Origin: an uncultured archaeon
Lineage (GTDB): Archaea > Aenigmatarchaeota > Aenigmatarchaeia > CG10238-14
Assembly (NCBI GenBank): GCA_964392445.1
Contig: CAYMPD010000004.1
Span: forward strand, 3,728-67,727
Length of the DNA stretch: 64,000 nt
Direction of reading: 5' to 3'
Shown: positions 17,148 to 38,343 of the stretch, piece after piece
How positions within the stretch are numbered: position 1 is the stretch's first letter
Layout of the letters: every line of letters starts with the position of its first letter
Translations under genes and position numbers: made by a program
Notes under the pieces: generated by a model
Told to the model about the DNA's origin: nothing
The model's database searches: none
What the model saw: only the letters and a program-made list of their open reading frames with translations

Positions 17148-17375
17148 TTCACTCGTAAGAATAGTTCTGAAGAAATTTTTGCTTCTAAGATTGCTTCTAA
17201 GGGTAGAATAACTATACCGATTAGTCTTAGGGCTAAACTTGGTTGGTTAGAGGGTAAAGAAGTTAAAATTAGAGTTTCTGGGGATAGTTTAATTCTTTCT
17301 GTTAATGGTCAGAATGGTGTAAAGGTTAGCATAGATGATTGTGGCTCATCTGGACCTGGTTCAATTCCAGATTGA
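17148..17375 (+). pseudogene. AbrB/SpoVT-like DNA-binding reading frame with no canonical start; its 3' end reads through tRNA-His
   Basis: Manual translation ...SKIASKGRITIPISLRAKLGWLEGKEVKIRVSGDSLILSVNGQNGVKVSIDDCGSSGPGSIPD*; in-frame TAG at 17145. Confidence 0.55.
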
Positions 17376-17377
17376 CC
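17307..17377 (+). tRNA. tRNA-His(GTG) with an atypical acceptor/T-stem junction
   Basis: D arm GTGT/GCAT, anticodon arm GATGA-TTGTGGC-TCATC, T arm CTGG-TTCAATT-CCAG; 3' acceptor strand 2 nt short. Confidence 0.7.
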
Positions 17378-17402
17378 TTGGTAAAAATAGAGGTGAATAA
17401 AA

Positions 17403-18134
17403 ATGAAAAAAATAGGAATAATAGGTGGTATGGGACCTGAGGGAACTGCGGATTTGTACATGAAAATAGTAAGATATTACCAGGATAATTTTGGAGCAAA
17501 GTACGATAAAGATTTCCCACCGATGATGATCTACAGTGTCCCAATACCTGATCTAGTTGAAAATCTGGAAAATGAAAAAATAACTTTGGATATGTTATCT
17601 GAGGCAGTGAAGACATTGGAAAATGTTGGTTGCGATTTCCTAGTAATAGCGTGCAACACAGTCCAGTTTCTATTAGATGATCTTAGAGAATCAGTTAAAA
17701 TACCAATCCTGGGAATAGCCGAAATAAGTGCTAGGTTTGTGTCAAACAAAAGTTATAAAAAAGTGGGAATATTAGGAACAGAGGCAACTATATCTCAGAA
17801 AAAAGTTTATGAAAAAGATTTTCAGGAAATTGGGGTTGAATTAATTAAACCAATGAAAGATGACCAAGAAGAATTAACTAGAATAATAATGAACCAACTT
17901 GCAGGTGAAACAACAAAAAAGGAAAAAGATAACTTGAAGACGATAATTGAAAACTTGGAAACCCGTGGAACAGAAGCTGTTTTAATAGCATGTACAGACT
18001 TACCACCAATAATAAATCAGGAAGACTTTGATATCCCGATAATCGATTGCACACAAGTTTATGCTGATGAGGCGGCGAGATTATCTACTTTTAAATCTAA
18101 ATTCAATAATAATGTAGGAGATAATTATGTCTAA
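17403..18134 (+). CDS. Aspartate/glutamate racemase family protein (two-Cys type)
   Basis: IGIIGGMGP, IACNT and IACTDLP motifs. Confidence 0.9.
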   Translation: MKKIGIIGGMGPEGTADLYMKIVRYYQDNFGAKYDKDFPPMMIYSVPIPDLVENLENEKITLDMLSEAVKTLENVGCDFLVIACNTVQFLLDDLRESVKIPILGIAEISARFVSNKSYKKVGILGTEATISQKKVYEKDFQEIGVELIKPMKDDQEELTRIIMNQLAGETTKKEKDNLKTIIENLETRGTEAVLIACTDLPPIINQEDFDIPIIDCTQVYADEAARLSTFKSKFNNNVGDNYV

Positions 18135-19428
18135 TAAATTCCAACCACCAAGAGGGACAAGAGATTTTCTCCCAGAAGAAATGATACTTAGGGAAAAAGT
18201 GTTTGATACTGTGAAAAAGGTTTTTAAAAGATATGGTTATGATCCCGCTAAAACACCTGCTTTTGAAAATTTCGATCTTTTTGCAATGAAAGAATCAATC
18301 GGTGAAGGAGAACAGGATAAATTGTATGTATTCGAGGATAAATCTGAGCGAAAGTTAGCGTTAAGATTCGATCAAACAGTTCCATTAGCAAGATTGGTAG
18401 CCACAAATCCTCAGTTACCAAAACCTTTCAAAAGATATGAGATATCAAGAGTTTGGAGATATGAGGATACAAGAAGAGGACGTTACCGTGAATTCTGGCA
18501 ATGCGATGTTGATATAGTCGGTTCAAGAGAAATGTCGGCAGATTCTGAAATAATTGATTGTGCGTTGACAATAATGGAAGAATTGGGTTTTGAGGATTGC
18601 TACGTTAGAATTAATAACAGAAAATTATTATCAGGGATAATCCGATTTGCAGGAGTTGAAGAAAATAAAGTAATAGAAGCATTCCGAACGATTGACAAGC
18701 TCGACAAGATTGGGATTGGTGGTGTTAAAAAAGAATTGAATGAAAGGGGAATAGAAGACCAAACCGCAGAAAAAATAATCGAAATAATAGGATTAGAAGG
18801 GGAACCGAGAGAAATATTGTCCAAAGTCAAAGATTATTTTGGTGATATCAAAGAAGGTCTGGAAGGTGTGAAAGAGCTAGAAGAATTAATTAAGAATCTT
18901 GAGATGATGGGAAAAGAAAATGTTATCTTTGACATAAGTCTCGCTCGTGGTTTGGATTATTACACTTCAACAATTTTTGAGCTTATGGGAAAAGACGAGA
19001 AAATAGGTAGTCTGGCAGGAGGAGGAAGATACGATAAAATGATCGGTGCTTTTACTGGCAACAAGAAAGAAATACCTGCAGTGGGCATAGCATTAGGAAT
19101 AGAAAGAATAATTGATCTTCTGAAAGAAAGGGGAGGTATTTCCCAAAAAACTTACACCAAGGTTTTCGTAATAAATGTTAATGATCAAGTAAGGGAAAAA
19201 TCTGTAAAAATATCCCAAGAACTCCGTCAATCAGGAATAAACACCCAGAATGATATCATGGGAAGACCGCTAAGTAAACAGCTTGACTATGCCAATTCTC
19301 TAGGAATACCTTACACAGTTATAGTCGGTCCAAAAGAAGTGGAATCAAATAGATTCAAACTCAAGAACATGAAAACAGGAGAAGAAACAGAATTAACTCT
19401 CGAAAAGATAATCGAAACTCTTTCTTAG
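18127..19428 (+). CDS. hisS: Histidyl-tRNA synthetase
   Basis: PRGTRDF, LRFDQTVP, GRYREFWQCD, ARGLDYY, GGGRYD, GIERI. Confidence 0.97.
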   Translation: MSNKFQPPRGTRDFLPEEMILREKVFDTVKKVFKRYGYDPAKTPAFENFDLFAMKESIGEGEQDKLYVFEDKSERKLALRFDQTVPLARLVATNPQLPKPFKRYEISRVWRYEDTRRGRYREFWQCDVDIVGSREMSADSEIIDCALTIMEELGFEDCYVRINNRKLLSGIIRFAGVEENKVIEAFRTIDKLDKIGIGGVKKELNERGIEDQTAEKIIEIIGLEGEPREILSKVKDYFGDIKEGLEGVKELEELIKNLEMMGKENVIFDISLARGLDYYTSTIFELMGKDEKIGSLAGGGRYDKMIGAFTGNKKEIPAVGIALGIERIIDLLKERGGISQKTYTKVFVINVNDQVREKSVKISQELRQSGINTQNDIMGRPLSKQLDYANSLGIPYTVIVGPKEVESNRFKLKNMKTGEETELTLEKIIETLS

Positions 19429-19553
19429 AGTACCATTCCACCCGAGAACATAACGGTTGATTCAAGTACTAACCCGCATTTTTGACAGATTAAACCTTCT
19501 GAGTTGTATTTGAGATTTGTTGAACCACATTCCGGGCACCTTCGGTCTTGCAT
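19425..19553 (-). CDS. TFIIB-type zinc-ribbon microprotein (42 aa)
   Basis: Manual translation MQDRRCPECGSTNLKYNSEGLICQKCGLVLESTVMFSGGMVL; not in the ORF track. Confidence 0.75.
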   Translation of the reverse strand: MQDRRCPECGSTNLKYNSEGLICQKCGLVLESTVMFSGGMVL

Positions 19554-19634
19554 AGTTACTACCTGTATGTGGTTATGAATAGATAGATATAAAAAGGTTT
19601 TTGTGGTGGGCTTTACAAGAAATGGATAGTGTTT

Positions 19635-19874
19635 TTATAGGACTTGCCTTGCTAAAAATTCCATCCTAAATCTTGATAAATTACTGAAATCGTATTGTGC
19701 ACAAGTATAACCTGCAGTTGAAGTTCTATTATTTTTAGTATCCCTCAAAGTAACTACAATTCCATGAGGACCGTATGAAATATCTAATATATTATAACTA
19801 TCTGGACCTCCAAAGGAAGCCACTTGATTTCGTACATCTCTTCTTAAATCATTTCCATTTCCCATAAAATCCAT
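19635..19874 (-). CDS. Hypothetical protein
   Basis: Non-overlapping ORF; no motif. Confidence 0.5.
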   Translation of the reverse strand: MDFMGNGNDLRRDVRNQVASFGGPDSYNILDISYGPHGIVVTLRDTKNNRTSTAGYTCAQYDFSNLSRFRMEFLARQVL

Positions 19875-19971
19875 TTAACTTTATTTTAAGTTAGATTTAA
19901 ATAATCAACAAATCCCTATTTTCCCAATTACTTATAAGTCTTCCTTTCCCTAATTAATGAACGTGATGTAA

Positions 19972-21789
19972 ATGAATGTTAAAAAAATTGTTTGTGATAC
20001 TTCTATCATTATTGATGGAAAAATTACTGAAATGTTAGAAAAAGACCAATTAGAAGGTTTAGAAGAATTAATTGTACCTAATGCTGCTCTTGATGAATTA
20101 CAAGCTCAAGCTTCAAAAGGAAGAAATGAAGGTTATGTAGGATTGGAAGAGTTAAAGAAGATAAGACAATTATGTGAAGAGAAAGATATTAATCTCAGAT
20201 TCACAGGTAAAAGACCTACTCTCGAGGAAATAAAACTTGCTGGTGGGGGGAGATTAGACGCAATAATTCGGGACGCTGCAAAGTTCGAGGACGCCACCCT
20301 TTTAACAGCAGATTATGTTCAAAGTTTGGTTGGGGATGCAGAAGGTGTAAAAACAGAGTATATTCCACCTGAGGAAGAAGAGGAAGGAGAGTTAATTTTT
20401 GAAAAATATTTTACCCCAGACACAATGAGTGTTCATCTCAAGGAAAATGTTAAACCAATGGGTAAAAGGGGGAAACCAGGAAAATTCAGGTTGCAAGACA
20501 TTGAAGACAAACCATTGACAAAACAACAAATGGAAAATATAATTCGAGATATTGTTGAAAGGGCTAGGAAAACCGAAGATACATTCATAGAGGCTGAAAG
20601 AGGAGGCTCAACAGTAATCCAAATGGGAAACAACCGAATAGCAATAGCCCGTCCACCATTCTCAGACGGATTCGAAGTAACAATAGTTAGACCAATAGTA
20701 AAACTAACACTTGAAGATTACAAATTATCTGATAAGTTGAAAAAAAGATTAAAAGAAAAAGCCGAAGGGGTTCTAGTTGCAGGTCCACCAGGATCAGGAA
20801 AATCAACCTTCACCGCAAGCCTAGCAGAATTCTACTTCTCCCAGGGAAGAATAGTTAAAACACTTGAGTCACCTAGAGATCTTCAATTAGGTCCAGAAAT
20901 TACTCAATACGCTCCTTTGGGTGGAGATTATTTCAAGACATCGGATGTTCTTCTTTTGGTAAGACCCGACTATACTATTTTCGACGAAGTGAGACAACCA
21001 AACCACTTCCGAATTTTTGCTGATATGAGGCTAGCGGGTGTTGGTATGGTTGGTGTAGTTCATGCTTCTGAGGCTGTTGATGCGGTTCAAAGATTTATTG
21101 GGAAGATTGAGTTAGGAATGATTCCCCATGTGGTTGATACTGTTATTTACATAAGAGCTGGTCAGATAGAAAAAGTTTATGAACTAGCTTTGACGGTTAA
21201 AGTACCTCATGGAATGACTGAGAAAGACTTAACAAGACCGGTTGTAGTAATAAAAGACTTTGAGACTGGTAAGTTGATATATGAAATCTATACTTATGGT
21301 GAGGAAAATGTCGTTATACCGATTGGGGATGAGGAAGAACAATTGAGTGGTCTTGAAAGTTTGGCCAAAGAGGCGATTAGAAAGGTTATGAAAAAATACG
21401 ATCCTCAGGCAGAGATTGAATTTATGGGTAAAAATAAGGTTCAAGTTAGAGTCGATAACGACTGTATTGCTAGATTAATTGGTAAGAATGGAAGTAATAT
21501 CTCCCGAATTGAGGACAAGTTAGGTGTGGGAATAGATGTTGAACCTAAGGTTGCAAGTACAGGTAAGAGAGTCAAGTTCGAAATAGAGGAAGTGGGAAAT
21601 AATGTTGTTTTTGACTTTTTAAGATCCTTGAAAGGCGAGATGGTCAATGTTTATATTGGTGATGATTATCTTCTTTCAGCCACTGTTGGTAAAAGTAATG
21701 ATGTTAAGATAACTAAAGATTCTCCTGTTGGTAAAAAACTTGTTAAGGCTTTGTTGAGTGGGAAGGAAATTAGGGTTTTGGGTGTTTGA
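19972..21789 (+). CDS. PIN-domain ATPase with KH domain (PINA family)
   Basis: PIN (CDTSIIIDG), Walker A GPPGSGKST, FDEVR, C-terminal KH LIGKNG. Confidence 0.92.
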   Translation: MNVKKIVCDTSIIIDGKITEMLEKDQLEGLEELIVPNAALDELQAQASKGRNEGYVGLEELKKIRQLCEEKDINLRFTGKRPTLEEIKLAGGGRLDAIIRDAAKFEDATLLTADYVQSLVGDAEGVKTEYIPPEEEEEGELIFEKYFTPDTMSVHLKENVKPMGKRGKPGKFRLQDIEDKPLTKQQMENIIRDIVERARKTEDTFIEAERGGSTVIQMGNNRIAIARPPFSDGFEVTIVRPIVKLTLEDYKLSDKLKKRLKEKAEGVLVAGPPGSGKSTFTASLAEFYFSQGRIVKTLESPRDLQLGPEITQYAPLGGDYFKTSDVLLLVRPDYTIFDEVRQPNHFRIFADMRLAGVGMVGVVHASEAVDAVQRFIGKIELGMIPHVVDTVIYIRAGQIEKVYELALTVKVPHGMTEKDLTRPVVVIKDFETGKLIYEIYTYGEENVVIPIGDEEEQLSGLESLAKEAIRKVMKKYDPQAEIEFMGKNKVQVRVDNDCIARLIGKNGSNISRIEDKLGVGIDVEPKVASTGKRVKFEIEEVGNNVVFDFLRSLKGEMVNVYIGDDYLLSATVGKSNDVKITKDSPVGKKLVKALLSGKEIRVLGV

Positions 21790-21854
21790 GGGGACATTTT
21801 TTTATTAAAAATATTCTAAATTCGAGTGTGGAATACAGATTTAGAAATAAATAA

Positions 21855-22136
21855 TCCAGAGGCCCTAGAATTGTATTAGAAGTTATTGATTGTGACATTA
21901 AAACCCAGAAAAATTTATTAGCAACTTTAACAAATTTAGCTTATTCAAGTTTAGATGGTAGATTTCCAGATTCTTTCCAGATCGCTTATGATCCACCTGG
22001 ATAAGAAGAAGTAAACAAAATAATAGATGGAATAAAGGAAACAGTGGAGAAATATGGATTAGAGTACGTTGAAGTTATACCTTCCTCACTTTTCTACCTG
22101 AGAGAAACAATAATTGATTTAAATATTATAACTTAA
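21855..22136 (+). pseudogene. Degraded coding-like frame with one internal TAA (22002) and no start
   Basis: About 93 codons of protein-like sequence interrupted by one stop. Confidence 0.3.
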
Positions 22137-22146
22137 TTATCAAATA

Positions 22147-22485
22147 ATGACAGGAATACCAAAAAGGTATAAGGGACATACACGTGGACATTTAGTATTT
22201 TATGGATCCAGTTCTAGTTCTTGGGAAGATTTAGTTGATGCTCTAGGAAGGAGGGGATATGAGATTGAATGCTACAAAGAACTAAACGGTGTTGATAAAT
22301 TACCGGAAAATCTTTCCTTTGTGAGGGGTTCAAAAATTTATGAAGCAGTAGTAATTTATCTTGGAAATGAAATGAAAAGATGTGGTCCTTGGAACCCCTT
22401 AATCAATCTTTCAGATGCTAATAATTGGAGTGTAGCTCATAAAAATGTAGATAGAGTTCGAAAACCTGAAAGAAGAAGATTCTAA
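22147..22485 (+). CDS. Hypothetical protein
   Basis: ORF only. Confidence 0.55.
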   Translation: MTGIPKRYKGHTRGHLVFYGSSSSSWEDLVDALGRRGYEIECYKELNGVDKLPENLSFVRGSKIYEAVVIYLGNEMKRCGPWNPLINLSDANNWSVAHKNVDRVRKPERRRF

Positions 22486-22763
22486 AACAAACTAAATATC
22501 CCTTTTTGAATCAAAAAAACAAAAAATACCACATTAAAGAATCCATTACTAAATCCAAGAAGCAAATAACCACCGATACCAGCATCAATAATGCTCACAA
22601 AGTTCAAACCACCATAACCAATCCCGAGAATTATTCCGAACAGAATCCCTTTAACAACCAGATAGCCACCAACAATTCTGTCAATATTACCTGGAAAAAA
22701 AGAAGAAGCTAGCAAGACTATTGAGCAGAAAATATCAAGCAATCCAAGTATTCTTCTTATCAT
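22482..22763 (-). CDS. Small multi-TM membrane protein
   Basis: Hydrophobic Gly-rich helices. Confidence 0.65.
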   Translation of the reverse strand: MIRRILGLLDIFCSIVLLASSFFPGNIDRIVGGYLVVKGILFGIILGIGYGGLNFVSIIDAGIGGYLLLGFSNGFFNVVFFVFLIQKGIFSLF

Positions 22764-22825
22764 AACTAGTTCTTGTTAGTTAAGAGTTTTATAGATGAAA
22801 GGTCAGAATTTTGGAAATATAGCGA

Positions 22826-23125
22826 TTAGTAGCTTGTTGTTTCTATAGGCTTCGAGTCCCCTCTTTCAAATCTTATTTTATTATAAGAGAATCTTATTAA
22901 TCCGTCAATATCTAGACCTCTCCTGAGTCTGGGATAGCGAGTATATAATTTATTTATTACCTCTGATTCTAGGTCTCCCCTGACTGGGAGATATAGATCA
23001 TCAAATTCTGGAGCTCGTCTATCCTCAAATATTGATTCTATATATTCACCTACAACCCTAATAACAAATTCTGGTAGAAATTTATCAGAGTCTACATCAA
23101 AACTACTCATAGTAATAGATAACAA
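22826..23125 (-). CDS. Hypothetical protein
   Basis: ORF only. Confidence 0.5.
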   Translation of the reverse strand: MLSITMSSFDVDSDKFLPEFVIRVVGEYIESIFEDRRAPEFDDLYLPVRGDLESEVINKLYTRYPRLRRGLDIDGLIRFSYNKIRFERGDSKPIETTSY

Positions 23126-23172
23126 GTGAAACGTTTTATCTCTAACATTTACCTTTTATAGAAAAAATAATA

Positions 23173-25029
23173 CTACCTAAACAAGAACGAATTTATCATT
23201 ATCGATATTGTACTGGAAACACTCGCTGCGCATGCTAACAAGGGACTAACAGTTAACCCCAATCCCATCAACAAACCCGAGGCAATTACAACCGCAGCAA
23301 GATTATAGGTATAAGTCCAGAAAAGATTCTGTCTTATTTTGGTCTGTGTAAAATCACTTATTTTTATCAATTTTTTAACCATTGTTAGATCGTTTCTTGT
23401 AAGAACTACATCCGCAGACTCCTTGATCAAATCTAGTTCATTATTAACCGATATTCCAACATCTGCTTGGGCAAGTGATGGAGCGTCGTTTATCCCATCT
23501 CCTATCATTACCAACCGCCCTTTCTCTCTTAATTCTTTGACTATCTCGAGTTTGTTTTCGGGTGTTACTTCTGAGAATATTTTTTCGATTCCTAATTCTT
23601 CTCCTATTCTTTCAGCCTTTGTTTTTGTATCGCCAGTTAACATTATTATTTCATTGCCTCTTTTTTTAAGGAATTCCACTAGTTCTTTTGACGCTTCTTT
23701 TAATGTATCTTGGAATTCAATCAAACCCATAGGCTTTCTATCCACACACACTATCACAGTATTTTGCAAATCTTCAGGTAACCCATCCTTTTCTATATTG
23801 AATTTATTTAGTAAACTCTCCTTCCCCACATGGATCGTGTGATCTTTGTATCTAGCATAAACACCCATCCCGAAGTATTCACGGAAATGATCGGGTTCAG
23901 GTACTCGTTTATTTTTATCGAGTTGGTCGTACAGAATTTTCACAAGTACATGCGAGGAATTCTTTTCGGCTATCAAAAAGTATTTAATGACCTCATCACA
24001 ACTAAAATCATTCAGAGTTTTTATCTGATCTACCATCCATTTTCCCTCAGTCAGTGTCCCAGTTTTGTCGAAAACATAGGTATTAATTTCAGGCAGCATC
24101 TCCACACTTCTTGGATTTTTAACAATAATCCCATTCTTAGTCAATGTTATTATTGCGAAAATTATTGCTATGGGTGTCGCTAGGACTAATGAGGCGTTTG
24201 ATGATATTACTAGGACAGTTGTTGCTTTTTGTAAGGCGTTATAAGTTGAAACACCCAAGAATTTCCAAATTCCAAATGTTGCTAGTGATGATAGGATTAT
24301 GAAGAACATGAATGCTTTGTAAGATTTTGCTAGTCTTTTTTTGTTCTGAGTTTTTGATTCTTCAACATTTTTTATCAAGTCCACTATTTGTGAGAGATAG
24401 GTATCTTCACCCAATCTTTCAACTTTAACTTTTATCATCCCGTCTATCACTATTGTTCCAGCGATAACTTTATCACCTCTTTCCTTTTCCACTTCTTGAC
24501 TTTCGCCAGTGATTAAACTCTCATCCACGCATGAACTTCCTGAGACTATTTCTCCATCGACTGGAACCTTTTTACCTGAGGCGATTATTATGATGTCACC
24601 TTCTGATAGACTTTTGATTGATAACATCTTCTCTTTTCCATTTCTTATTACTTTGACTTTTTTGGGTAGGAGTTTGTATAAGTCGGAAAATGTTTTCTGG
24701 ATTCCTTGGTAAGTTTTTTGTTCGATTAGTTTTGTAATGTAGTAAATCAGGATCAGTATTCCCGTGATGTAAAAATAGGTTTTTTGTTGGATTGTCATTC
24801 CGTAGATACTGAGAATATAAACCGAAGCTGTACTCAAGAGGACTAGTAGATCAATGTTGTAATCCCCTAAATTCTCTTTTATGATGTAGTAGGATGTTGT
24901 TATTTGGATGATTGTTGTGAGTGTGAGTAGAATAAGTATATTCTCCGGATTAACTATTCCAAGCATTATTACAGGTAAACCTACTACTAGGTTAACAAGA
25001 AACAGGCATGCCAGTAATTTCCCCCTCAT
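23173..25029 (-). CDS. P1B-type (heavy-metal) ATPase, atypical TM metal site, no N-terminal metal-binding domain
   Basis: TGES, DKTGTLT, LTGD, GDGINDAP; CPC replaced by SNA. Likely start MRGK at 25029. Confidence 0.88.
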   Translation of the reverse strand: MRGKLLACLFLVNLVVGLPVIMLGIVNPENILILLTLTTIIQITTSYYIIKENLGDYNIDLLVLLSTASVYILSIYGMTIQQKTYFYITGILILIYYITKLIEQKTYQGIQKTFSDLYKLLPKKVKVIRNGKEKMLSIKSLSEGDIIIIASGKKVPVDGEIVSGSSCVDESLITGESQEVEKERGDKVIAGTIVIDGMIKVKVERLGEDTYLSQIVDLIKNVEESKTQNKKRLAKSYKAFMFFIILSSLATFGIWKFLGVSTYNALQKATTVLVISSNASLVLATPIAIIFAIITLTKNGIIVKNPRSVEMLPEINTYVFDKTGTLTEGKWMVDQIKTLNDFSCDEVIKYFLIAEKNSSHVLVKILYDQLDKNKRVPEPDHFREYFGMGVYARYKDHTIHVGKESLLNKFNIEKDGLPEDLQNTVIVCVDRKPMGLIEFQDTLKEASKELVEFLKKRGNEIIMLTGDTKTKAERIGEELGIEKIFSEVTPENKLEIVKELREKGRLVMIGDGINDAPSLAQADVGISVNNELDLIKESADVVLTRNDLTMVKKLIKISDFTQTKIRQNLFWTYTYNLAAVVIASGLLMGLGLTVSPLLACAASVSSTISIMINSFLFR

Positions 25030-26856: not shown

Positions 26857-26857
26857 T

Positions 26858-27889: not shown

Positions 27890-27925
27890 GAATAATAATT
27901 AGAAAAAATAAGTAAAATAAGTTAT
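27854..27925 (+). repeat. Direct repeat copy A (rtcA 5' end plus upstream spacer)
   Basis: 27854-27891 matches 29144-29181 at 37/38 nt; weaker similarity continues about 35 nt. Confidence 0.9.
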
Positions 27926-28489
27926 ACACCTCAAGTTTTTTTTGGATTTCGCTTTGCTGTCTTTCTTAGATTTTTTTAATCTCTTTTTCTTATTATCCTC
28001 CATCTCTTTCAATACTATTCTAACTTTGTTAACTATTTCTTTTGAGGTTTCTTCTAATACCTCCAGTTTTTCCTTTTCAATTTCTGTTTTTGTCCCATAT
28101 TGCATATCTTCTCTCATCGTCTTGGCATCGTTTTTAACTCCTTTACTAACGTTTCTTACACTTTTAACATCCTTTTTTGTAAGTTTTATCTTCTTCAGAT
28201 CTATCAGATGTTCTATTGTGGTGAATGTACATTCTTGATTTCGTGACTCATAACCTACTTTTGAAAGAATTGCAAGAAATGAATGATACATCGAATAAAA
28301 TCCAGCATTTACAGCCCAGTCAGTGAATCCACCTTTTATGTTGTGTTTCATTGCTTTTAAGTTATGTAAAGCCTTCTCTATGTGCTTTTTAGATTCTTCA
28401 TCACTCGACTTAACTTTTTTGATACCTCTGTGGTATTTTCCTTTACCTTTTCTTAAACACCAGTTGAATTTATCCTCTGTTCTTGTCAT
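27899..28489 (-). CDS. HEPN-domain protein (putative RNase toxin)
   Basis: HIEKALHNL...WAVNAGFYSMYH...GYESRNQEC; ATGA overlap with the MNT gene. Confidence 0.8.
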   Translation of the reverse strand: MTRTEDKFNWCLRKGKGKYHRGIKKVKSSDEESKKHIEKALHNLKAMKHNIKGGFTDWAVNAGFYSMYHSFLAILSKVGYESRNQECTFTTIEHLIDLKKIKLTKKDVKSVRNVSKGVKNDAKTMREDMQYGTKTEIEKEKLEVLEETSKEIVNKVRIVLKEMEDNKKKRLKKSKKDSKAKSKKNLRCITYFTYFF

Positions 28490-29082
28490 TTCATCATCAC
28501 CTTTTTGATTGCTTTCACTATATAACGACTTCCCCATAAAATAAAACCCTTTCTTATTATATCTAGTATCACTTGATCTTTTTCTCTGAGGTTTTGTTCC
28601 AAGTCTTTTTCTGTTTGGAAAACAGGGTGTATTTCTTTTGCTGATATAGAATTGATTTCCTCTATTTTCTTTTTTAGCTTCCTATAGTTTGAAGAATCGG
28701 ATAAAACCAATATATCAATATCATTTGCTTCTTTTGGATTTTCTATGAAAGAGCCGAAAACAATTAGTGAGTATGAAATATCTTTTAGTCCATCTAGGTT
28801 TTCCACCAATACCTCTAGATCTGGATTTTCTTTCTTTTGGGAGAGAATCAATTCTGAAACTTTAATTGCAATTTCATTATTTAGATCGATAGAATAAAAT
28901 ACTGAATTTCCCATCTTTTCAGGGACAAGTATTTCTTGAGCTTCTAACCTTTTGAGTATCTTATATCCTCCCATTGGACTAAGATCAAGTTCTCTGGTTA
29001 ATTGGTTGATGCTATACTTTTCTGTGAAATTTCTAATTAAAAAATTAATTACTCTTGCTTCATTCTTTGTTAATGATATCAT
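28486..29082 (-). CDS. wHTH-fused minimal nucleotidyltransferase (MNT antitoxin)
   Basis: N-terminal wHTH; VFGSF...NDIDIL motif. Confidence 0.85.
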   Translation of the reverse strand: MISLTKNEARVINFLIRNFTEKYSINQLTRELDLSPMGGYKILKRLEAQEILVPEKMGNSVFYSIDLNNEIAIKVSELILSQKKENPDLEVLVENLDGLKDISYSLIVFGSFIENPKEANDIDILVLSDSSNYRKLKKKIEEINSISAKEIHPVFQTEKDLEQNLREKDQVILDIIRKGFILWGSRYIVKAIKKVMMK

Positions 29083-29122: not shown

Positions 29123-29143
29123 ATTTCTTTAGTGGAACTATAA

Positions 29144-31149: not shown

Positions 31150-31192
31150 ATAAACAACTCCTTGAGAATTTAGTAGTTAGTATTTAAAAGGA

Positions 31193-32197
31193 TTAACCGT
31201 TGAATAGGGGACTTAAAGCTCTTCCGTGTATTCTATTCGATATAGCAGTTGTTAAAATAGCTATTATGCTATGAATCTCGATAAACTCCCTTTCCTCTTC
31301 GGTATAATGATGAGGGATAGTATCTGTTCCTATTATTCTATATCCACCTTCTACAATTCTTTCTTTTGCGGGACGCCCTTCTGAATCGGGTGTTAAACCT
31401 AGATGTGTTACACAAGTTTCCACGCTTCTAGCACCTCTTTCCATAAGAAGATCTGCAGCATTCATTGATGTACCACCAGAATCAAGGATATCATCGTATT
31501 GGACAACCTTTAAACCTTCCACATTCCCTATCAAACCTACAGGCCTTGTTTTCCCAACACCCAAACGTTCTTTTATAATTACGGCTAAAGGTAGACCGAG
31601 TACATCTGCGAATCTACGACAATTTTTGATGGCTCCACCGTCAGGAGCAACAATAACAGTTTCATTTATAGAGTGATTTTCCCTATATTTTTCAGCCAAG
31701 AATCTGTATGTAGGAAAAGCTTCAAGATGACAATTCCCAGAGAATGAAGCCACAGCTTGATCAACATGGGGATGAAAAGTAAATACTCTATCAGCCCCAG
31801 CAACTTCGTATGCATCTGAAACTAATCTAGAACTTATATCCTCTCTATCATAACTTCTATCTTGTCTTAGCCAAGGATTATAAGGTTCAATTAAAACTAC
31901 CTGTGTAGCATCACATCTTTTTAGAGTTCTGATAATTGATAAAACCTGAACTAGCGATTCAGCTGCAGGTAAAGACATTTGATTTATCAAATATACTTCC
32001 TTCTTTCTGACAGTGTCACTTAAAGTGAATTTGAGTGAACCATCATTAAATAATGTTTCATATGCTTCTATTAGCGAGAAGAAATTTCTATCTTTATCTG
32101 GGAGACTCTGATAAACTCTTTCTCCTATGTAAAAGGGGACATCAACTTTACGTCTAGGATCGTATTTAGGAATAACTATTGCGTAGGGTTGCTTCAT
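31193..32197 (-). CDS. prs: Ribose-phosphate pyrophosphokinase, divergent
   Basis: LRQDR, VAPDGGA, DDILDSGGT, THL; likely start MKQP at 32197. Confidence 0.85.
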   Translation of the reverse strand: MKQPYAIVIPKYDPRRKVDVPFYIGERVYQSLPDKDRNFFSLIEAYETLFNDGSLKFTLSDTVRKKEVYLINQMSLPAAESLVQVLSIIRTLKRCDATQVVLIEPYNPWLRQDRSYDREDISSRLVSDAYEVAGADRVFTFHPHVDQAVASFSGNCHLEAFPTYRFLAEKYRENHSINETVIVAPDGGAIKNCRRFADVLGLPLAVIIKERLGVGKTRPVGLIGNVEGLKVVQYDDILDSGGTSMNAADLLMERGARSVETCVTHLGLTPDSEGRPAKERIVEGGYRIIGTDTIPHHYTEEEREFIEIHSIIAILTTAISNRIHGRALSPLFNG

Positions 32198-32549
32198 ATT
32201 AGTAAATTTGAAAAATAACTTTAAGTTCCAAGAAATTTTCAAAAATAAATAATTTTTTTAATATATTATATTATTTAACAGCTTTTCTTATAAATCTTTT
32301 ATTCTAATACCATCTGGATTTTCATATGCTATTCCTAAGTATTGCTCATAGTGTGTTAATGGATTTTTCCCTGTTGAATCAAGTACATATAATCTACTTT
32401 TAGGGGATTCTAGAACTGGAAATTTATGAGACTTATGAGGGAATGTGCCTCAAGTTTCTATATGGTAAACCAATCCATTACCAAGTAAAACTTAAATTCT
32501 CTTAGTCAATCTAATTATTAATTTATTTTCCTATCACCAATAATTACCT

Positions 32550-33485
32550 ATGAACCTAACACATGGTGCAAAAACAGCAGTTAAACAATGTATGAATATT
32601 CAGTCCAATGAAAGTGTTCTAATAATAACTGACAATGATATGCCTAGACAGATAACAGGATCACTTTTCCAGCAATCCCGAAAAATCACAAAAAGTACAG
32701 TGGTAAAAAAAATGAAAACTTTAGATAGATCTGGTCAAGAACCTCCAGAAGAAATAGCAAAATTAATGCAACAACCCGACGTTCTATTTTTGGTAACATC
32801 CAAATCCTTGAGCCACACACAAGCAAGAAGAACAGCATCTCAAAAAGAGGTTAGAATCGCATCAATGCCAACAGTACCAGTATCATCATTCGTGGATGGA
32901 GGTTTAACCGCGGACTATAATCAAGTCAAGAAGAACTGTGAAAGAATGTTTAATGCGATCAAAGAGAAAAAAAACATCCACCTAACCTCACCTAATGGAA
33001 CAGATGTTGAATTAAAAATAGGTCAATACAAACTCGATAAGGACGATGGAATTTATCATGAACCAGGATCTTTTGGTAATCTTCCTGCGGGAGAAGTATG
33101 TACAGCTCCAAATAAATGCTCAACTAATGGGAAACTGGTCTTAGATAAAATGGGAAGGTTTGGGGAGAATATTAAAATCACAATCAAGAACGGATATGCA
33201 ATAAAAATACAAGGTTCACCAGAGTTAAAATCAACCGTGATCAAGCTTGGTAAGGACGGACGAAATGTTGCTGAAATAGGTATAGGTGCTAATCCAAAGG
33301 CCAAAGTAATTGGGGTTACACTTGAGGATGAGAAAGTTTACGGTACAGTCCACATGGCACTCGGCAATAATGCTAGTTGGGGTGGAGATGTTGATGTTCA
33401 GTTTCATGATGATGGAATAATTCTTAAACCTACTTTGAAAGTTGATGGTGAAGTTTTGATTAAAGATGGCAAGTGGGCGATTTGA
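32550..33485 (+). CDS. M29-type metallo-aminopeptidase
   Basis: GNLPAGEV, AEIGIGANP, LEDEK, HMALG, H-x-D. Confidence 0.88.
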   Translation: MNLTHGAKTAVKQCMNIQSNESVLIITDNDMPRQITGSLFQQSRKITKSTVVKKMKTLDRSGQEPPEEIAKLMQQPDVLFLVTSKSLSHTQARRTASQKEVRIASMPTVPVSSFVDGGLTADYNQVKKNCERMFNAIKEKKNIHLTSPNGTDVELKIGQYKLDKDDGIYHEPGSFGNLPAGEVCTAPNKCSTNGKLVLDKMGRFGENIKITIKNGYAIKIQGSPELKSTVIKLGKDGRNVAEIGIGANPKAKVIGVTLEDEKVYGTVHMALGNNASWGGDVDVQFHDDGIILKPTLKVDGEVLIKDGKWAI

Positions 33486-33525
33486 TAAAAAATTATAAGG
33501 CCAACAAATCCTATTAATTTCCTAG

Positions 33526-34578
33526 GTGAATAACATCCAATACATACTTGACTTCATAAATGCTAATATGTACCTAAAATCCCTGATTATACTAGTTTCA
33601 TTCTTCCTAGGTTCTAAATTATTCCTGTTCATCACCGAAAGAGTCATTTACAAATTAGTCAAAAAAACAAAAACCAGAGTTGACGACAAAATCATTCACA
33701 GAACCGGAAAACCTATCTCACTTGTCCTACTTTTAATCGGCCTCAGATTAGCAATACTACCATTGAACTTGGGAGAAAAACTAATGTCCTCCTCAACAAA
33801 TTTAATCCTCTCACTAATAATACTAGCCATCTCTTACACATTTGTCATGGTTTTTGACGTTCTGATAAATAATTGGGGACTGAAATGGGCGAAAAAAACA
33901 AAATCCACTTTAGACGATAACTTAGTCAAACTCTTACAAAAAACGTCCAAAGTAATAATCTTTTCCATAGCATTCATTTACGTTCTTGATGTTTGGGGGA
34001 TAGAAATAATTCCGTTTTTGGCAAGTATGGGTATAGCAGGTATTGCAATCGCATTTGCACTACAAGATAGTCTGGGAGATGTCTTTGGTGGATTAACACT
34101 GATACTTGACAAGTCTGTGAAGATGGGTGATGTGATTGAACTAGATGATAAAACAACTGGGACAGTGATTGATATTGGGTTAAGAAGTACAAAAATGAGG
34201 ACCTTTGACAATGAGTTGGTAATAGTTCCTAATGGCCAGTTGTCCGATTCAAAAATAATGAACTATGCAGAACCCGATCAGACAGTAAGATTAGTTATTC
34301 CTTTTGGGGTTGCTTATGGGTCTGATATTGATAAAGTCAAAAAAATAATTCTGAAAAAGATTAAAAATTTGGAGCATATACTAGACGATCCAAAACCTCT
34401 AATAAGGTTCGTGGAAATGGGAGATTCTTCTTTAAACTTTAAGTTGTATCTGCAGGTGGATCACTATTCTAATAGATCCGCAACTAAGGATGAAGTAAAC
34501 ACTATTATTTATAACACTTTGAGAAAAGAGGGTATAGAGATACCAAATCCCCAGTTGGATGTTTGGTTAAGGAAGTAA
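33526..34578 (+). CDS. mscS: MscS small-conductance mechanosensitive channel; start possibly ATC at 33535
   Basis: GIAGIAIAFALQD, IGLRSTK, VPNGQL, GVAYGSD, IEIP. Confidence 0.92.
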   Translation: MNNIQYILDFINANMYLKSLIILVSFFLGSKLFLFITERVIYKLVKKTKTRVDDKIIHRTGKPISLVLLLIGLRLAILPLNLGEKLMSSSTNLILSLIILAISYTFVMVFDVLINNWGLKWAKKTKSTLDDNLVKLLQKTSKVIIFSIAFIYVLDVWGIEIIPFLASMGIAGIAIAFALQDSLGDVFGGLTLILDKSVKMGDVIELDDKTTGTVIDIGLRSTKMRTFDNELVIVPNGQLSDSKIMNYAEPDQTVRLVIPFGVAYGSDIDKVKKIILKKIKNLEHILDDPKPLIRFVEMGDSSLNFKLYLQVDHYSNRSATKDEVNTIIYNTLRKEGIEIPNPQLDVWLRK

Positions 34579-34722
34579 TACTCCAGCTTTTCCTGTACCA
34601 AAACTATTTATACCAATTATGTCATTAGTTATGAGTGAAGTGATGGTGATGAACCGCCAATATGTAACGCTAGTATAGAAGAAAAAGATTTTACTAGTGA
34701 TAATAAGCTTCTTCTTGATTGT

Positions 34723-34977
34723 TTGAGGAAAGTTCTTGACGAGAGGCTAACACAAAAACAGAAATTCATTGTTAACTTTCTACGAGTGAACGGAGCAGAT
34801 AATATTACACGTTTGGTTGAATTTTTAGCAAAGGAAATGGAATGTTCTGAATCTTGTGTTTGGAATAATATTAATTCTTTGAAGAAATGTGGGTTGGTTG
34901 AGAATGGTTTGAATAGACCTGTTAAACTTTCTGGGGTTTGCAGAAGTATTTTTGGAGGAGATGATGATGAAAGGTGA
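34723..34977 (+). CDS. Small winged-HTH protein (start uncertain; frame open from 34639)
   Basis: LTQKQKFIV...SESCVWNNINSLKKCGLV helix-turn-helix pattern. Confidence 0.6.
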   Translation: MRKVLDERLTQKQKFIVNFLRVNGADNITRLVEFLAKEMECSESCVWNNINSLKKCGLVENGLNRPVKLSGVCRSIFGGDDDER

Positions 34978-34998
34978 ATGTTTTTACTTCTTTATTTT

Positions 34999-35114
34999 CC
35001 CGTGGTAGCTCAATCGCAGAGCGCCTGGTTGTAGATGGACATAGAATACTTCTTGTTATTCTTGAATGTCTGATAGTGACCAGAAGGTTGGGAGTTCAAT
35101 TCTCTCCCATGGGA
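34999..35114 (+). tRNA. tRNA-Tyr(GTA) with a 44-nt intron at 37/38 (35035-35078)
   Basis: Acceptor CCCGTGG/CCATGGG with C1-G72 and A73; D and T arms; BHB motif around the intron. Confidence 0.92.
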
Positions 35115-35130
35115 TCAGAGGCGATGAAAA

Positions 35131-35496
35131 ATGAGTAGAAATAAATATGGACTCAGAATACAGGGCGAAGTTAGAGATATCTATATTTTTGATTTTATGA
35201 ATGCTCTTCAGGAATATACAGGAGAGAATATTGGAGTTTTGAATGGTGGTGGAGGCTTAAAGAGACTAGTAAACAGTGATGTTGAAGGTAGAGTTAGAGG
35301 TGATTGGTATGAAATGATGGTCGAATGTGGTGAACCGAATAGTTTTATACCTTATACAAGGACTTTCCCTATTAGGTTGGATTTCAAAACCACTCCGAGA
35401 AACAAAAGAAGAGCAGATGAAACCATGGAAGATATAATTAGGATAGTGCTAGACAATGGAGGTTCAGTATTCTTCTATGGAGAGTTTGAGAGGTGA
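35131..35496 (+). CDS. Hypothetical protein
   Basis: ORF tightly packed behind tRNA-Tyr. Confidence 0.6.
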   Translation: MSRNKYGLRIQGEVRDIYIFDFMNALQEYTGENIGVLNGGGGLKRLVNSDVEGRVRGDWYEMMVECGEPNSFIPYTRTFPIRLDFKTTPRNKRRADETMEDIIRIVLDNGGSVFFYGEFER

Positions 35497-35502
35497 GGTA
35501 GT

Positions 35503-35913
35503 ATGTGGCTTGATAAAGTGAAAAAAATACTATATGGAATTTGTTTGACTTCTACAATTTCAGGTTGTGGAGATGTGAACATGGATACAAATAGAGAAAT
35601 ATCTAGGTCCGTAACGAGGGAAATTAAAGCAGAGAAATTTGAATGTAAAGAGATTTTTTATCCTGGGGCGGGGGGAGTTTTTGCGAAAGAAATAATAATC
35701 TCAATAGAAGATGAGAATGGAGTATTGTACAGAAGTAATGCTGTATGGCCGACTGAAAATGAAAAATTTGGTTACTTTGAAGAATTATGTGGTAGAATGA
35801 GAAGAGGGAAGATAGGAGCAGGAGCGGATGTAGCTCTTTACGGAGAAATAAGACCAAGAAGAGACAGTATTTTACAAGTAGATGAAATATACCTGACTGA
35901 TCTAGGTGATTAA
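35503..35913 (+). CDS. Hypothetical protein, possible lipoprotein
   Basis: N-terminal hydrophobic stretch ending ISGC; GAGG SD. Confidence 0.6.
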   Translation: MWLDKVKKILYGICLTSTISGCGDVNMDTNREISRSVTREIKAEKFECKEIFYPGAGGVFAKEIIISIEDENGVLYRSNAVWPTENEKFGYFEELCGRMRRGKIGAGADVALYGEIRPRRDSILQVDEIYLTDLGD

Positions 35914-35914
35914 A

Positions 35915-36598
35915 ATGAAAACAATAGGAATAATAGGTGGTATGGGACCTGAAACAACTTCAAAATTTTATTTAGAGCTAATTAGGTTGTCTAGAAGGGA
36001 AATGGGTCATTTACCATCAATCATAATAGAAAGCTTACCGATTAGTTTTAGTTCGGAAGAGAATTTTGTTAAAAACGGAATTAAAGAATCTGAATTCGAG
36101 AGATTAATGATTAAATCGGCGAAACGTTTCGAGGAGATAGGGGTTAATCTGGTAGTAATCCCATCAAATACAGCCCACTTTTTCATAGAAAAAGTCAGGG
36201 AAAGCACAAGTATTCCTGTGATGAATATCATAAAGGAAACTACTAAATTGTGTCTCAAAAGGGGTTTTAGGAAAGTTGGGGTTCTGGGGACTGAAATTAC
36301 AATGAAAAATAGATTATATGAGAAAGAATTCGAGAAATTTAACATCGAAATTATTAAATTGGATAAGAAAAATCAGGAAGAATTATCAAATATAATACAT
36401 AGAATAGTCACTGGTGATACTAAAACAAAAGATCAAAAAAATTTAGAAAATCTAATGGAAATTTTAAAAAATAAGGGTGCAGAAGTAATAATTTTGGGTT
36501 GCACAGACCTTCAAAATCTAATCAAAGATAGTTCTAATATTGAAATAATCGATAGTATGCATACTCTTGTTGAAGCAACATTCAGGAAATTATTATGA
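35915..36598 (+). CDS. Aspartate/glutamate racemase family protein (first Cys replaced by Ser)
   Basis: IGIIGGMGP, IPSNTAH, LGCTDL. Confidence 0.88.
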   Translation: MKTIGIIGGMGPETTSKFYLELIRLSRREMGHLPSIIIESLPISFSSEENFVKNGIKESEFERLMIKSAKRFEEIGVNLVVIPSNTAHFFIEKVRESTSIPVMNIIKETTKLCLKRGFRKVGVLGTEITMKNRLYEKEFEKFNIEIIKLDKKNQEELSNIIHRIVTGDTKTKDQKNLENLMEILKNKGAEVIILGCTDLQNLIKDSSNIEIIDSMHTLVEATFRKLL

Positions 36599-36629
36599 TT
36601 AAAAAAACAAAAATTATGTAGGTGATAAT

Positions 36630-37100
36630 GTGTCAAAAGTAGATCAAGTAAAACAGTTCATAGAAGAAAATAATCTAGAAGCAGAGATAATAGAGCATGA
36701 AGAATCAGGATTAACAAGCGAACAGGCCGCAGAAGCAACAGGAGTAGATATAGAACAAATAATCAAAACACTACTATTCATGGACAAGAAACACAGACCA
36801 GTAATAGTAATCTGTCAAGGTCATAAAAGAGTCGATATGGATAAAGTGATAAAGTTTGTCGAACTAAAAAAACCAAGATTAGCTAGACCAGAAGAAATCA
36901 AACAATTACTGGGAACAGAACCAGGAGGAACACCACCGATATGCTTACCCGAAGATATACCAGTTCTGATGGATAAAGGAGTCACTAAACAGAAATTTGT
37001 GGTTGGGTCAGCGGGAACAAAATTCACTGGCTTAAAACTAAAACCATATGATATTGTTAAATTTACTAATGCTAAAATAGTTAGTATAACTGAGGGATAG
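36630..37100 (+). CDS. YbaK/EbsC (INS superfamily) aminoacyl-tRNA deacylase
   Basis: IIKTLLF, GTEPGGTPP, VVGSAG. Confidence 0.85.
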   Translation: MSKVDQVKQFIEENNLEAEIIEHEESGLTSEQAAEATGVDIEQIIKTLLFMDKKHRPVIVICQGHKRVDMDKVIKFVELKKPRLARPEEIKQLLGTEPGGTPPICLPEDIPVLMDKGVTKQKFVVGSAGTKFTGLKLKPYDIVKFTNAKIVSITEG

Positions 37101-37104
37101 AGAA

Positions 37105-37248
37105 ATGACAGAATACTTTACAAGATACATCAAATACCCAGACGGAACACTAGAAGAATTAAAAGTTCCTAAGAAAGAAGTAAGAAAACAAATACTAGAA
37201 TCTGCTAAAAGAAACAAAGAAATGTTGGACATACTTGCAAAACTTTAG
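37105..37248 (+). CDS. 47-aa hypothetical protein
   Basis: Manual translation MTEYFTRYIKYPDGTLEELKVPKKEVRKQILESAKRNKEMLDILAKL; exactly fills the ybaK-tyrS gap. Confidence 0.55.
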   Translation: MTEYFTRYIKYPDGTLEELKVPKKEVRKQILESAKRNKEMLDILAKL

Positions 37249-37257
37249 GTGAAATTA

Positions 37258-38343
37258 ATGGATTTAGAAAAAAGAATGGAATTAATTAAAAGACCTCCAA
37301 CTGAAGAGGTAATTACAGAGGAAGACCTGAAAGAATTATTGCAAACAAAAGATCATCCAGTAGCTTATGACGGGTTTGAAACTTCAGGACTTCTACACTT
37401 AGCATCAGGGCCCTTACGTGCAATTAAAGTTCAAGATATGCTTGATGCAGGTTGCGAATTCATTCTATGGATAGCCGACTGGTTTGCTTATATCAACAAC
37501 AAAATGGGCGGAGATTTAGAACTCATCAAAAAAACAGGCGAATATTACATCGAAGGTTGGAAAGCGTGTGGAGTCGACATGAAAAAAGTCAAAGTTATGT
37601 GGACGAGCGATGCCGTAAAAGACCCGAATTACTGGAAAGGTGTTATAGATGTTGCCAAGAATACAACCGTCAACCGAACAATCCGCTCAGGACCAATAAT
37701 GGGAAGAAGCGAGTCAGAGATGCAATACACGGCACAGTTGTTCTACCCGATGATGCAGGCGTGGGATCCATTTTATCTCAAAGCTGATATTCTCCAATTG
37801 GGAATGGATCAAAGAAATGCTACAGTTCTTTCGCGTGAATTAACTTCAAAGTTGGGTTATTCGACAAGGGTGTGTGTTCATCATCATTTATTAGCAGGTT
37901 TGCAGGGACCAAAAGAAGGAAGAATGGGACAAGAAACAGCAACAGTTCAGTTAGAAGACAAGATGAGTAAATCCAAACCAAATACAGCAATATTCATCCA
38001 CGACAGTAAGAAGGAAATCCAGGAAAAAATAAATGGTGCATTTTGCCCAGAAAAAGTTGTTAAAGGGAACCCAGTTTTGGAAATATGGAAGTACATAGTC
38101 TTCAGAAAATTTGATTCTAGAACTATAAAAAGACCGTCCAAATTCGGTGGAGATATTACAGTCGGAAATTACGAAGAACTAGAAAATAAGTTCAGAAAAG
38201 GAGAATTACACCCATTAGATCTGAAAAAAGAAACATCCGAAGCTTTAAACGAAATAATAAACCCAATAAGGAAACATTTCGAAAGAAACAAAAAAGCTAA
38301 GAAATTGTACGAAACTGTAAAAAAGGCCAAAATAACCCGCTAA
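37258..38343 (+). CDS. tyrS: Tyrosyl-tRNA synthetase (archaeal type)
   Basis: [12 protein letters not shown] (HIGH), ADWFA, YPMMQ, GMDQ, KMSKS. Confidence 0.95.

Follow-up and report, generated by a model that had tools for sequence, protein, structure and literature searches.

The window analysed here, a stretch of 64,000 nucleotides from contig CAYMPD010000004.1 of an uncultured archaeon, carries two copies of a conserved co-directional gene module. The module consists of tRNA(X), accessory genes where present, an amino-acid racemase, a YbaK-like domain where present, and the X-tRNA synthetase; X is His in the first copy (17307-19428) and Tyr in the second (34999-38343). This type of module belongs to DPANN archaea and to candidate phyla radiation (CPR) bacteria. 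It is probable (roughly 0.8) that the modules functionally couple an amino-acid-specific racemase to the cognate synthetase and tRNA. Such a coupling was proposed in a first-pass annotation of the window and is well supported by the conserved adjacency of the genes, the tRNA genes upstream, a further case involving Trp, and protein fusions. As read from sequence, the arrangement probably prevents D-His, D-Tyr and D-Trp from entering proteins and at the same time recycles them.

Every module element is found at the position given in the first-pass annotation, as confirmed by ARAGORN, Rfam, Pfam and NCBIfam. The interval given there, 17307-38343, comprises two modules that lie approximately 15.5 kb apart.

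Loci analysed

The closest relatives of the window are Aenigmarchaeota and its GC content is 35%. The neighbourhood sample consists of 80 genome loci around relatives of racA (the racemase of the His module), 80 metagenome loci around relatives of racB (the racemase of the Tyr module) and the loci of close homologues. Open reading frames (ORFs) were called in all sampled loci, cited here by L number, and were then queried with the window proteins as seeds. Offset statistics refer to 85 non-window loci, in which genes for aminoacyl-tRNA synthetases (aaRS) were looked for with these seeds. The identity of tryptophanyl-tRNA synthetase (TrpRS) genes is based on NCBIfam for part of the loci and on seed or Pfam matches for the remainder.

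Conservation of the racemase-synthetase adjacency

All 22 of the 22 seed-detected aaRS genes are situated on the racemase strand at offsets of -1 to +3, and none is found at other offsets out to +/-8 genes. At offset +1 there are 14 aaRS genes observed and 1.8 expected (binomial P = 3.6e-9). An unbiased Pfam census of 144 neighbours of the non-canonical racemases gives HGTP_anticodon (14), tRNA-synt_His (13) and tRNA-synt_1b (9) as the top families, followed by HisG (3) and Trp_repressor (2). The canonical aspartate racemase (AspR) clade, which serves as a control, does not show the association; its top neighbours are dicarboxylate symporter, peptidase S58 and amidohydrolase families, and the aaRS genes near it are limited to two for ProRS on the opposite strand, with none co-oriented. 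Conservation of the adjacency in relatives, on which the first-pass annotation had staked its proposal, is thus found, and it recurs across DPANN archaea and CPR bacteria.

The order racemase followed by histidyl-tRNA synthetase (HisRS), on the same strand and mostly adjoining, is present in Aenigmarchaeota, Nanoarchaeota, Woesearchaeota, Micrarchaeota, unclassified archaea and CPR Microgenomates, and Undinarchaeota display the order HisRS followed by racemase. The HisRS-linked loci are L002, L005, L008-L012, L014, L015, L018, L020, L021, L121, L145, L167 and L169. A racemase followed by TrpRS is found in CPR bacteria and in one nanoarchaeote (L036, L047, L050, L054, L055, L068, L070, L092, L118 and L143). 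The Tyr string of racB, YbaK-like gene, small ORF and tyrosyl-tRNA synthetase (TyrRS) is kept in an Aenigmarchaeota genome (L086). It appears condensed in L084/L085, where racemase and YbaK-like domain form one 394 aa protein and TyrRS comes immediately after. In L028 (Saccharibacteria) the order is TyrRS followed by racemase.

Other genes also occur in these neighbourhoods. A ThrRS gene adjoins a racA-subclade racemase or sits three genes off in Aenigmarchaeota and Shapirobacteria (L001, L004, L171 and L173), and in Shapirobacteria an opposite-strand gene for an EamA-family transporter lies between the two. A one-off rearrangement through the transposase found upstream in L001 was considered as the origin of the ThrRS neighbour and dropped, since ThrRS recurs in L004 and L171/173. 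Divergent HisG-like proteins are found inside the tRNA-His/racemase/HisRS strings of L002, L009 and L018; they score approximately 56 bits, under the TIGR00070 cutoff of 75.75. Genes of the Trp-repressor family are present upstream of racemase modules in CPR bacteria (L048, L054 and L170). The HisG-like genes of His modules and the Trp repressor of Trp modules give a context that matches the amino acid and speaks for the coupling.

Cognate tRNA genes upstream

In addition to the window, a tRNA-His gene is found upstream of the racemase in at least 11 further loci (L002, L004, L008, L009, L012, L015, L018, L021, L030, L167 and L170). The tRNA-His of L009 has an intron and L018 carries two tRNA-His copies. 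Intron-bearing orthologues of the window tRNA-Tyr are present in L084 and L087, with exons that are conserved with compensatory changes and an intron that has diverged. A tRNA-Trp gene stands directly ahead of the racemase-TrpRS pair in L050 and L118; in L118 the start codon of the racemase is 2 nt from the end of the tRNA. The logic of tRNA(X), racemase and X-tRNA synthetase, which had been noticed for His and Tyr, therefore holds for these two and for a third amino acid, Trp.

Racemase sequences, active site and clades

From their family matches, the window racemases can be placed in the cofactor-independent Asp/Glu-racemase superfamily as diverged representatives. Both pass PF01177 (racA 138 bits, racB 118 bits; cutoff 31) and TIGR00035 (167.5 and 158.5 bits; cutoff 93.1). 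They fall under the equivalog cutoff of glutamate racemase (TIGR00067; 56 and 48 bits, cutoff 146.65) and under that of the cysteate racemase CuyB (NF052483; approximately 150 bits, cutoff 190). The two share a 34% identity. Orthologues of racB are found in L086 (57% identity) and, fused to YbaK, in L084/85 (55%).

The solved structure closest to racA is that of Pyrococcus horikoshii aspartate racemase (PhAspR, 1JFL). racA keeps both catalytic cysteines (motifs IACNT and ACTDL, at the positions of PhAspR Cys82 and Cys194). racB has Ser in place of the first catalytic Cys (VIPSNT) and retains the second (GCTDL); its orthologues have both. The Ser codon of racB is TCA and the Cys codon of the orthologues is TGT, a two-nucleotide change, and the Ser is therefore not a sequencing slip. 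For RacX, a recently characterised enzyme from this superfamily, the kcat/Km values of racemisation are 141 s^-1 mM^-1 with Trp and 95 s^-1 mM^-1 with Tyr, and RacX with Ala at the first-Cys position is still active but biased in the L-to-D direction (PMC12838360), which is relevant here because racB has Ser at that position.

An alignment of all locus racemases to PhAspR shows that the canonical AspR clade keeps P[KQ]IPDRTA (Arg48) and [VI]KAG (Lys164). Arg48 and Lys164 are absent in every aaRS-linked racemase aligned. In racA they are replaced by Leu and Ala, and in racB by Phe/Val-type residues (motif ISNFVK) and Thr (motif IVTGD), respectively. The aaRS-linked racemases also display a one-residue deletion and clade-specific replacements at two active-site segments. 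These segments read P-[IL]PDVVE and IIMN-ILAGK in the His-linked clade, P-VPDFIS and IIRN-VIAGK in the Trp-linked clade, and P-I[ES][NG]F[IV]K and IIH[RK]-IV in the Tyr-linked clade. A neighbour-joining tree likewise places the His-, Trp- and Tyr-linked racemases in separate clades; racA, with motifs P-IPDLVE and IIMN-QLAGE, is in the His clade. The conservation pattern of Arg48 and Lys164 argues that the aaRS-linked racemases are not aspartate racemases. Specificity for Asp/Glu is thus disfavoured for the window enzymes, which have lost the Arg/Lys pair of the canonical clade.

A 30 nt stretch identical in racA and racB had been taken as a sign that the two are related paralogues. The identity is real; the stretch occurs exactly twice, is absent from shuffled sequences (0 occurrences), and encodes the N-terminal IGIIGGMGPE motif of the family. 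It is not special evidence of recent paralogy, as many unrelated genomes show 21-25/27 identity over 27 nt of it. Gene conversion was considered on the strength of a codon-usage model (P ~2e-4) and set aside in view of that identity in unrelated genomes. We attribute the stretch to a conserved motif combined with AT-rich codon use; it need not come from gene conversion.

YbaK-like editing domains and fusions

The YbaK-like protein of the Tyr module matches PF04073 with 97.8 bits (cutoff 25.5). The nearest structures are APE2540 (PDB 1WDV, 1e-16) and TTHA1699 (2CX5, 1.6e-14), and the conserved K-[ST]-L lysine is present, with IIKTLLF aligned to IVKTLIV of 1WDV and IVKSLVF of 2CX5. The protein gives 81 bits with the Cys-tRNA(Pro) deacylase model TIGR00011, under the cutoff of 153.25. 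No module protein matches the DTD family of D-aminoacyl-tRNA deacylases in Pfam or NCBIfam, a search that covered the module proteins and not the rest of the window or genome.

The same domain takes different positions in related loci. It is encoded by a free gene between racemase and TyrRS in L086 and between racemase and an archaeal TrpRS in L092. It is fused to the racemase in P0123 (L084/85), found on two contigs with TyrRS directly after. In L118, after tRNA-Trp and the racemase, the TrpRS itself carries an N-terminal YbaK-like (tRNA_edit) domain. The TyrRS of L084 has a C-terminal AlaX-like editing domain, and in L093 an AlaX-like gene is situated two genes upstream. Since the editing domain is attached alternately to the synthetase or to the racemase, its product is most simply the substrate of the racemase. 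The fusions support a functional unit that would involve tRNA editing. No further racemase::YbaK fusion was found among the best 150 matches in a search of 1.84 billion representatives; the fusion is rare. TyrRS and TrpRS are the classic mischargers of D-amino acids and are not normally known to carry editing domains.

The two modules of the window

Features of the window and of related loci are listed in Table 1. In the His module, tRNA-His and racA are separated by 24 nt that contain a GAGGTGA ribosome-binding motif, and the start of hisS overlaps the end of racA by 8 nt. hisS passes TIGR00442 (405 bits, cutoff 286.75) and is below the cutoff for HisZ (216 bits, cutoff 271.65), and is thus a HisRS and not a HisZ. 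The SpoVT/AbrB-like frame ahead of tRNA-His has no stop before the tRNA, so that reading continues through it. The same arrangement is kept in L002, L004, L012, L015 and L167/168, and the stretch may be a regulator of the His module. An apparent 'MazE+racemase' fusion (P0138) is a gene-calling artefact in which the frame runs through tRNA-His.

In the Tyr module the gaps between genes are 1-31 nt. The GTA anticodon, the C1-G72 pair and A73 identify the first element as an archaeal tRNA-Tyr. Its intron adjoins the anticodon and is the reason that ARAGORN missed the gene. Two orphan ORFs take the position that is held in L084 and L086 by a protein with a TyrRS fold, described below. The 47 aa ORF has a 46 aa orthologue at the same position in L086, where a Fic-domain gene is inserted immediately ahead of it. 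tyrS passes NF006330 (archaeal type PRK08560) with 395 bits against a cutoff of 220; its ATG at 37258 is preceded by an AGGTGA motif, and the longest ORF begins at GTG 37249. Both modules appear to be packed too tightly for internal promoters, and co-transcription is predicted from the spacing.

Table 1. Coordinates of module elements and other features in the window and in related loci.
Feature	Position	Strand	Basis or remark
SpoVT/AbrB-like coding stretch ASKGRITIPISLRAKLGWLEGKEVKIRVSGDSLILSVN	17148-17306	+	Translation; without ATG, GTG or TTG start
tRNA-His (anticodon GTG)	17307-17378	+	ARAGORN; Rfam 35.3 bits
racA, cofactor-independent amino-acid racemase, HisRS-linked clade, 243 aa	17403-18134	+	PF01177 E = 4.7e-40
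hisS, histidyl-tRNA synthetase	18127-19428	+	Pfam tRNA-synt_His and HGTP_anticodon (4e-18)
HEPN-domain and nucleotidyltransferase-domain genes, overlapping	27899-29082	-	Layout of a HEPN/MNT toxin-antitoxin pair
tRNA-Tyr, anticodon GTA at 35031-35033, C1-G72	34999-35114	+	Rfam RF00005 47.9 bits; sequence read by eye
tRNA-Tyr intron, ~44 nt	roughly 35036-35079	+	
Orphan ORF, 121 aa	35131-35496	+	No Pfam or NCBIfam match
Orphan ORF, 136 aa, lipoprotein-like N-terminal signal (…LTSTISGCGD)	35503-35913	+	No Pfam or NCBIfam match
racB, racemase, TyrRS-linked clade, 227 aa	35915-36598	+	PF01177 E = 6.8e-34
Predicted YbaK/ProX-superfamily aminoacyl-tRNA editing protein, APE2540/TTHA1699-like group	36630-37100	+	PF04073 6e-28
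47 aa ORF	37105-37248	+	No family match (Pfam, NCBIfam)
tyrS, archaeal-type tyrosyl-tRNA synthetase	37258-38343	+	PF00579 1.7e-49
tRNA, 95 nt	55820-55914	-	Rfam tRNA 49.6 bits; ARAGORN identity undetermined, four-base anticodon call gact
46 aa orthologue of the 47 aa ORF	L086:6349-6489		
TyrRS-fold paralogue (example)	L019:6967-8004		
TrpRS with N-terminal YbaK-like domain	L118:1508-2995		
TyrRS with C-terminal AlaX-like domain	L084:3106-4704		
HisG-like proteins	L002:5125-5793; L009:920-1498; L018:3640-4185		
Trp-repressor-family genes	L048:941-1270; L054:7228-7473; L170:1792-2085		

The genes between the two modules are unrelated housekeeping genes, including a PIN-ATPase-KH protein, a P-type ATPase, an aminotransferase, RtcA, the HEPN/nucleotidyltransferase pair and a beta-CASP RNase. 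The 95 nt tRNA downstream of the Tyr module probably contains an intron.

Proposed function of the modules

The modules suggest the following course of events. Each racemase would act on the free amino acid of the neighbouring synthetase and, as the synthetase drains only the L-form, the net flux would be from D to L. A scavenging, biosynthetically poor cell could thereby use D-His or D-Tyr, and the pool of D-amino acid that can be mischarged by TyrRS, TrpRS and perhaps HisRS would be lowered. The YbaK-like protein would hydrolyse residual D-aminoacyl-tRNA, and the D-amino acid released would be a substrate of the racemase. The steps would combine into a loop of deacylation, racemisation and recharging, and co-transcription of the tRNA would tie this repair loop to the demand for that amino acid. 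The YbaK-like domain probably removes D-aminoacyl groups from tRNA. The combination of D-to-L conversion, a lowered pool of mischargeable D-amino acid and YbaK-like removal of residual D-aminoacyl-tRNA is somewhat favoured as the function of the modules.

A more far-reaching version can be put forward tentatively, although we consider it rather doubtful. Here translational homochirality in DPANN archaea and CPR bacteria would be enforced by a repair loop dedicated to a given amino acid, with genes that lie together with those of the tRNA and the synthetase. The YbaK-like domain, perhaps together with the TyrRS-fold protein, would capture D-aminoacyl-tRNA. A specialised racemase would invert the released or still esterified amino acid, and the synthetase would recharge the tRNA.

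Several points weigh against racemase-based removal and recycling of D-amino acids. Racemases of the racA subclade are found near ThrRS in three lineages (L001, L004 and L171/173), and in view of these neighbours the assignment of one racemase to one amino acid may be too neat. In L170 the TrpR-like gene heads a His module, with tRNA-His and a His-type racemase. We know of no YbaK-family member that is D-specific, and the window YbaK-like protein falls in a subgroup without assigned specificity. racB, with one catalytic Cys missing, may be one-directional, slow or non-catalytic. The argument against aspartate specificity also draws on Arg48 and Lys164 of PhAspR as ligands of the side-chain (beta-)carboxylate of the substrate, which is our assumption. 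Lastly, the TyrRS-fold protein of related loci could point to a different, tRNA-dependent chemistry.

The TyrRS-fold paralogue and alternative explanations

An unannotated protein of 270-440 aa adjoins many of the His- and Tyr-type racemases and often overlaps the racemase start (L010, L012, L015, L019, L021, L022, L030, L084-L087, L094 and L169/170). It shows no Pfam match, the families of cyclodipeptide synthases (CDPS) included, and only 17 homologues are found among 5.8 billion proteins, all named hypothetical. An AlphaFold model (pLDDT 93, pTM 0.91) matches archaeal/eukaryotic TyrRS in Foldseek over approximately 340 columns (E ~1e-11, TM ~0.6), and the top 50 matches are all TyrRS and not CDPS. 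The TyrRS architecture of the protein is complete, C-terminal domain included. Other residues stand at the HIGH and KMSKS positions, and the tyrosine-binding Y..Q is now an invariant Y-x3-E. The protein appears to be a catalytically repurposed aaRS fold. A 642 aa protein, P0242, consists of a racemase with an extra part of approximately 400 aa; it was examined as a candidate fusion and rejected, the extra part being unrelated to the paralogue families.

That many His and Tyr modules place a TyrRS-fold protein without HIGH/KMSKS next to the racemase is what one would expect if the synthetase and tRNA feed this paralogue, as an enzyme of CDPS or aminoacyl-transferase type, and the racemase epimerises a precursor or the product; the window would then hold a reduced version. 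The invariant Y-x3-E resembles the Tyr/Glu pair of CDPS, and the Pfam family of the racemases also holds hydantoin racemases, which act on cyclic amino-acid derivatives. However, the paralogue is absent from the window, in both modules, no Pfam CDPS match was obtained, and the top 50 Foldseek matches are all true TyrRS. The synthetases resemble housekeeping copies, being well above their equivalog cutoffs, and the TyrRS gene is syntenic with ribosomal and RNA polymerase genes. Secondary-metabolite clusters are moreover rare in such small genomes, and a tRNA-dependent product is unlikely.

It is likewise improbable that the racemases work in the other direction and make D-His, D-Tyr and D-Trp from the L-forms for the envelope, for signalling or for harm to the host, with the synthetase adjacent as part of a shared response to amino-acid supply. 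To make the poison of a co-expressed synthetase would be self-defeating, with the fused editing domain a costly patch, and genes of D-amino-acid ligase or Mur type are not enriched among the neighbours in the Pfam census. The enzymes are reversible, bacterial D-Tyr and D-Trp are known as signals and antibiofilm agents, and the L-to-D bias of the RacX homologue substituted at the first Cys (PMC12838360) could apply to racB, with its Ser.

A further explanation is that the racemase-family protein epimerises aminoacyl-AMP or aminoacyl-tRNA from D to L in place, or serves, without catalysis, as an amino-acid sensor or as a synthetase subunit. The fusion partner of the racemase is a domain that binds the aminoacyl-CCA end, an ester chemically has a more acidic alpha-proton than a free carboxylate, and a non-standard role would fit the missing catalytic Cys of racB. 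We nevertheless consider it very unlikely, as the motifs of amino-acid racemases are kept (GGMGP, CNT, GCT[DE]L), a precedent is lacking and no RNA-binding feature is seen. The absence of any functional link, through inherited synteny or chance packing in the dense genomes of DPANN and CPR, which share genes by transfer and include same-clade loci without an aaRS neighbour (L003, L013, L016 and others), is close to refuted by the comparative data: three synthetases each have their own racemase clade, the link spans archaea and bacteria with the strand shared in every case, cognate tRNAs are found upstream, two independent domain fusions occur and the control clade is free of the association.

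Relation to known systems

The coupling of racemase, synthetase and tRNA shares its proposed purpose with DTD1, DTD2 and DTD3, which act next to the synthetase to exclude D-amino acids, in the classic case D-Tyr and D-Trp, from translation. It differs in that the module is without DTD homology and its candidate deacylase has the YbaK fold. The module also includes a racemase, by which the D-amino acid would be recycled, whereas DTD only releases it, and is encoded with one specific tRNA and synthetase, whereas DTD is a general factor. The trans-editing factors of the YbaK/ProX type (INS superfamily) have the same PF04073 domain and the K-T-L lysine, and are free or fused to the synthetase, as INS is in ProRS; their partner is ProRS, but here it is TyrRS, TrpRS or the racemase. 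PhAspR (1JFL) and the broad-spectrum racemases RacX/YgeA are of the same fold and family (PF01177, TIGR00035), and racA shares the two-Cys motifs CNT and GCT[DE]L. Unlike in PhAspR, Arg48 and Lys164 are replaced, the pocket motifs are clade-specific, and the genomic partners are synthetases and tRNAs, not dicarboxylate transporters or peptidases.

The nearest description is that of Mukai et al. 2017 (Life 7:8, PMC5370408), who report operons of tRNA-Trp(A73), ORF1 and TrpRS-A from CPR and DPANN, in part with a Trp repressor at the head, and suspect that ORF1 resembles class I aaRS. The likeness extends to the organisms, the tRNA-headed operon with a synthetase, the occasional Trp repressor upstream and the presence of such an unannotated protein. 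Those operons (PMC5370408) are described without mention of a racemase or YbaK and contain extra, non-canonical TrpRS copies; here the pattern reaches His and Tyr with apparently canonical synthetases. Precedents for repurposed aaRS folds, such as that of the paralogue in related loci appears to be, are HisZ-HisG, in which a paralogue of a synthetase was recruited to amino-acid metabolism, and the cyclodipeptide synthases, which have a TyrRS/TrpRS fold but no ATP motifs. HisG-like genes also occur in His modules; in contrast to CDPS, the paralogue retains the complete TyrRS architecture, finds TyrRS in its top fold matches and does not occur in the window.

The first-pass annotation knew of no description of a unit of this kind, and none was found in the open-access literature, although a description elsewhere is possible. 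The arrangement of racemase, synthetase and tRNA is thus apparently undescribed, and would be a further form of quality control or salvage tied to the synthetase.

Significance

The work exposes an unannotated TyrRS-fold protein family that travels with the module, and racemases with a predicted, diverged specificity for His, Tyr and Trp could serve as biocatalysts. The exclusion of D-amino acids from proteins is currently explained by the selectivity of synthetases together with DTD-type deacylases. If the repair loop is true, chiral quality control would gain a third mechanism that differs from DTD-type hydrolysis, and racemases would have their first physiological role in translation. A module of racemase, editing domain, synthetase and tRNA would add a recycling step to chiral quality control and would give TyrRS and TrpRS an editing partner that is not known for them. 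The way in which ultra-small symbionts that scavenge amino acids deal with the D-amino acids of their host or sediment would be explained as well.

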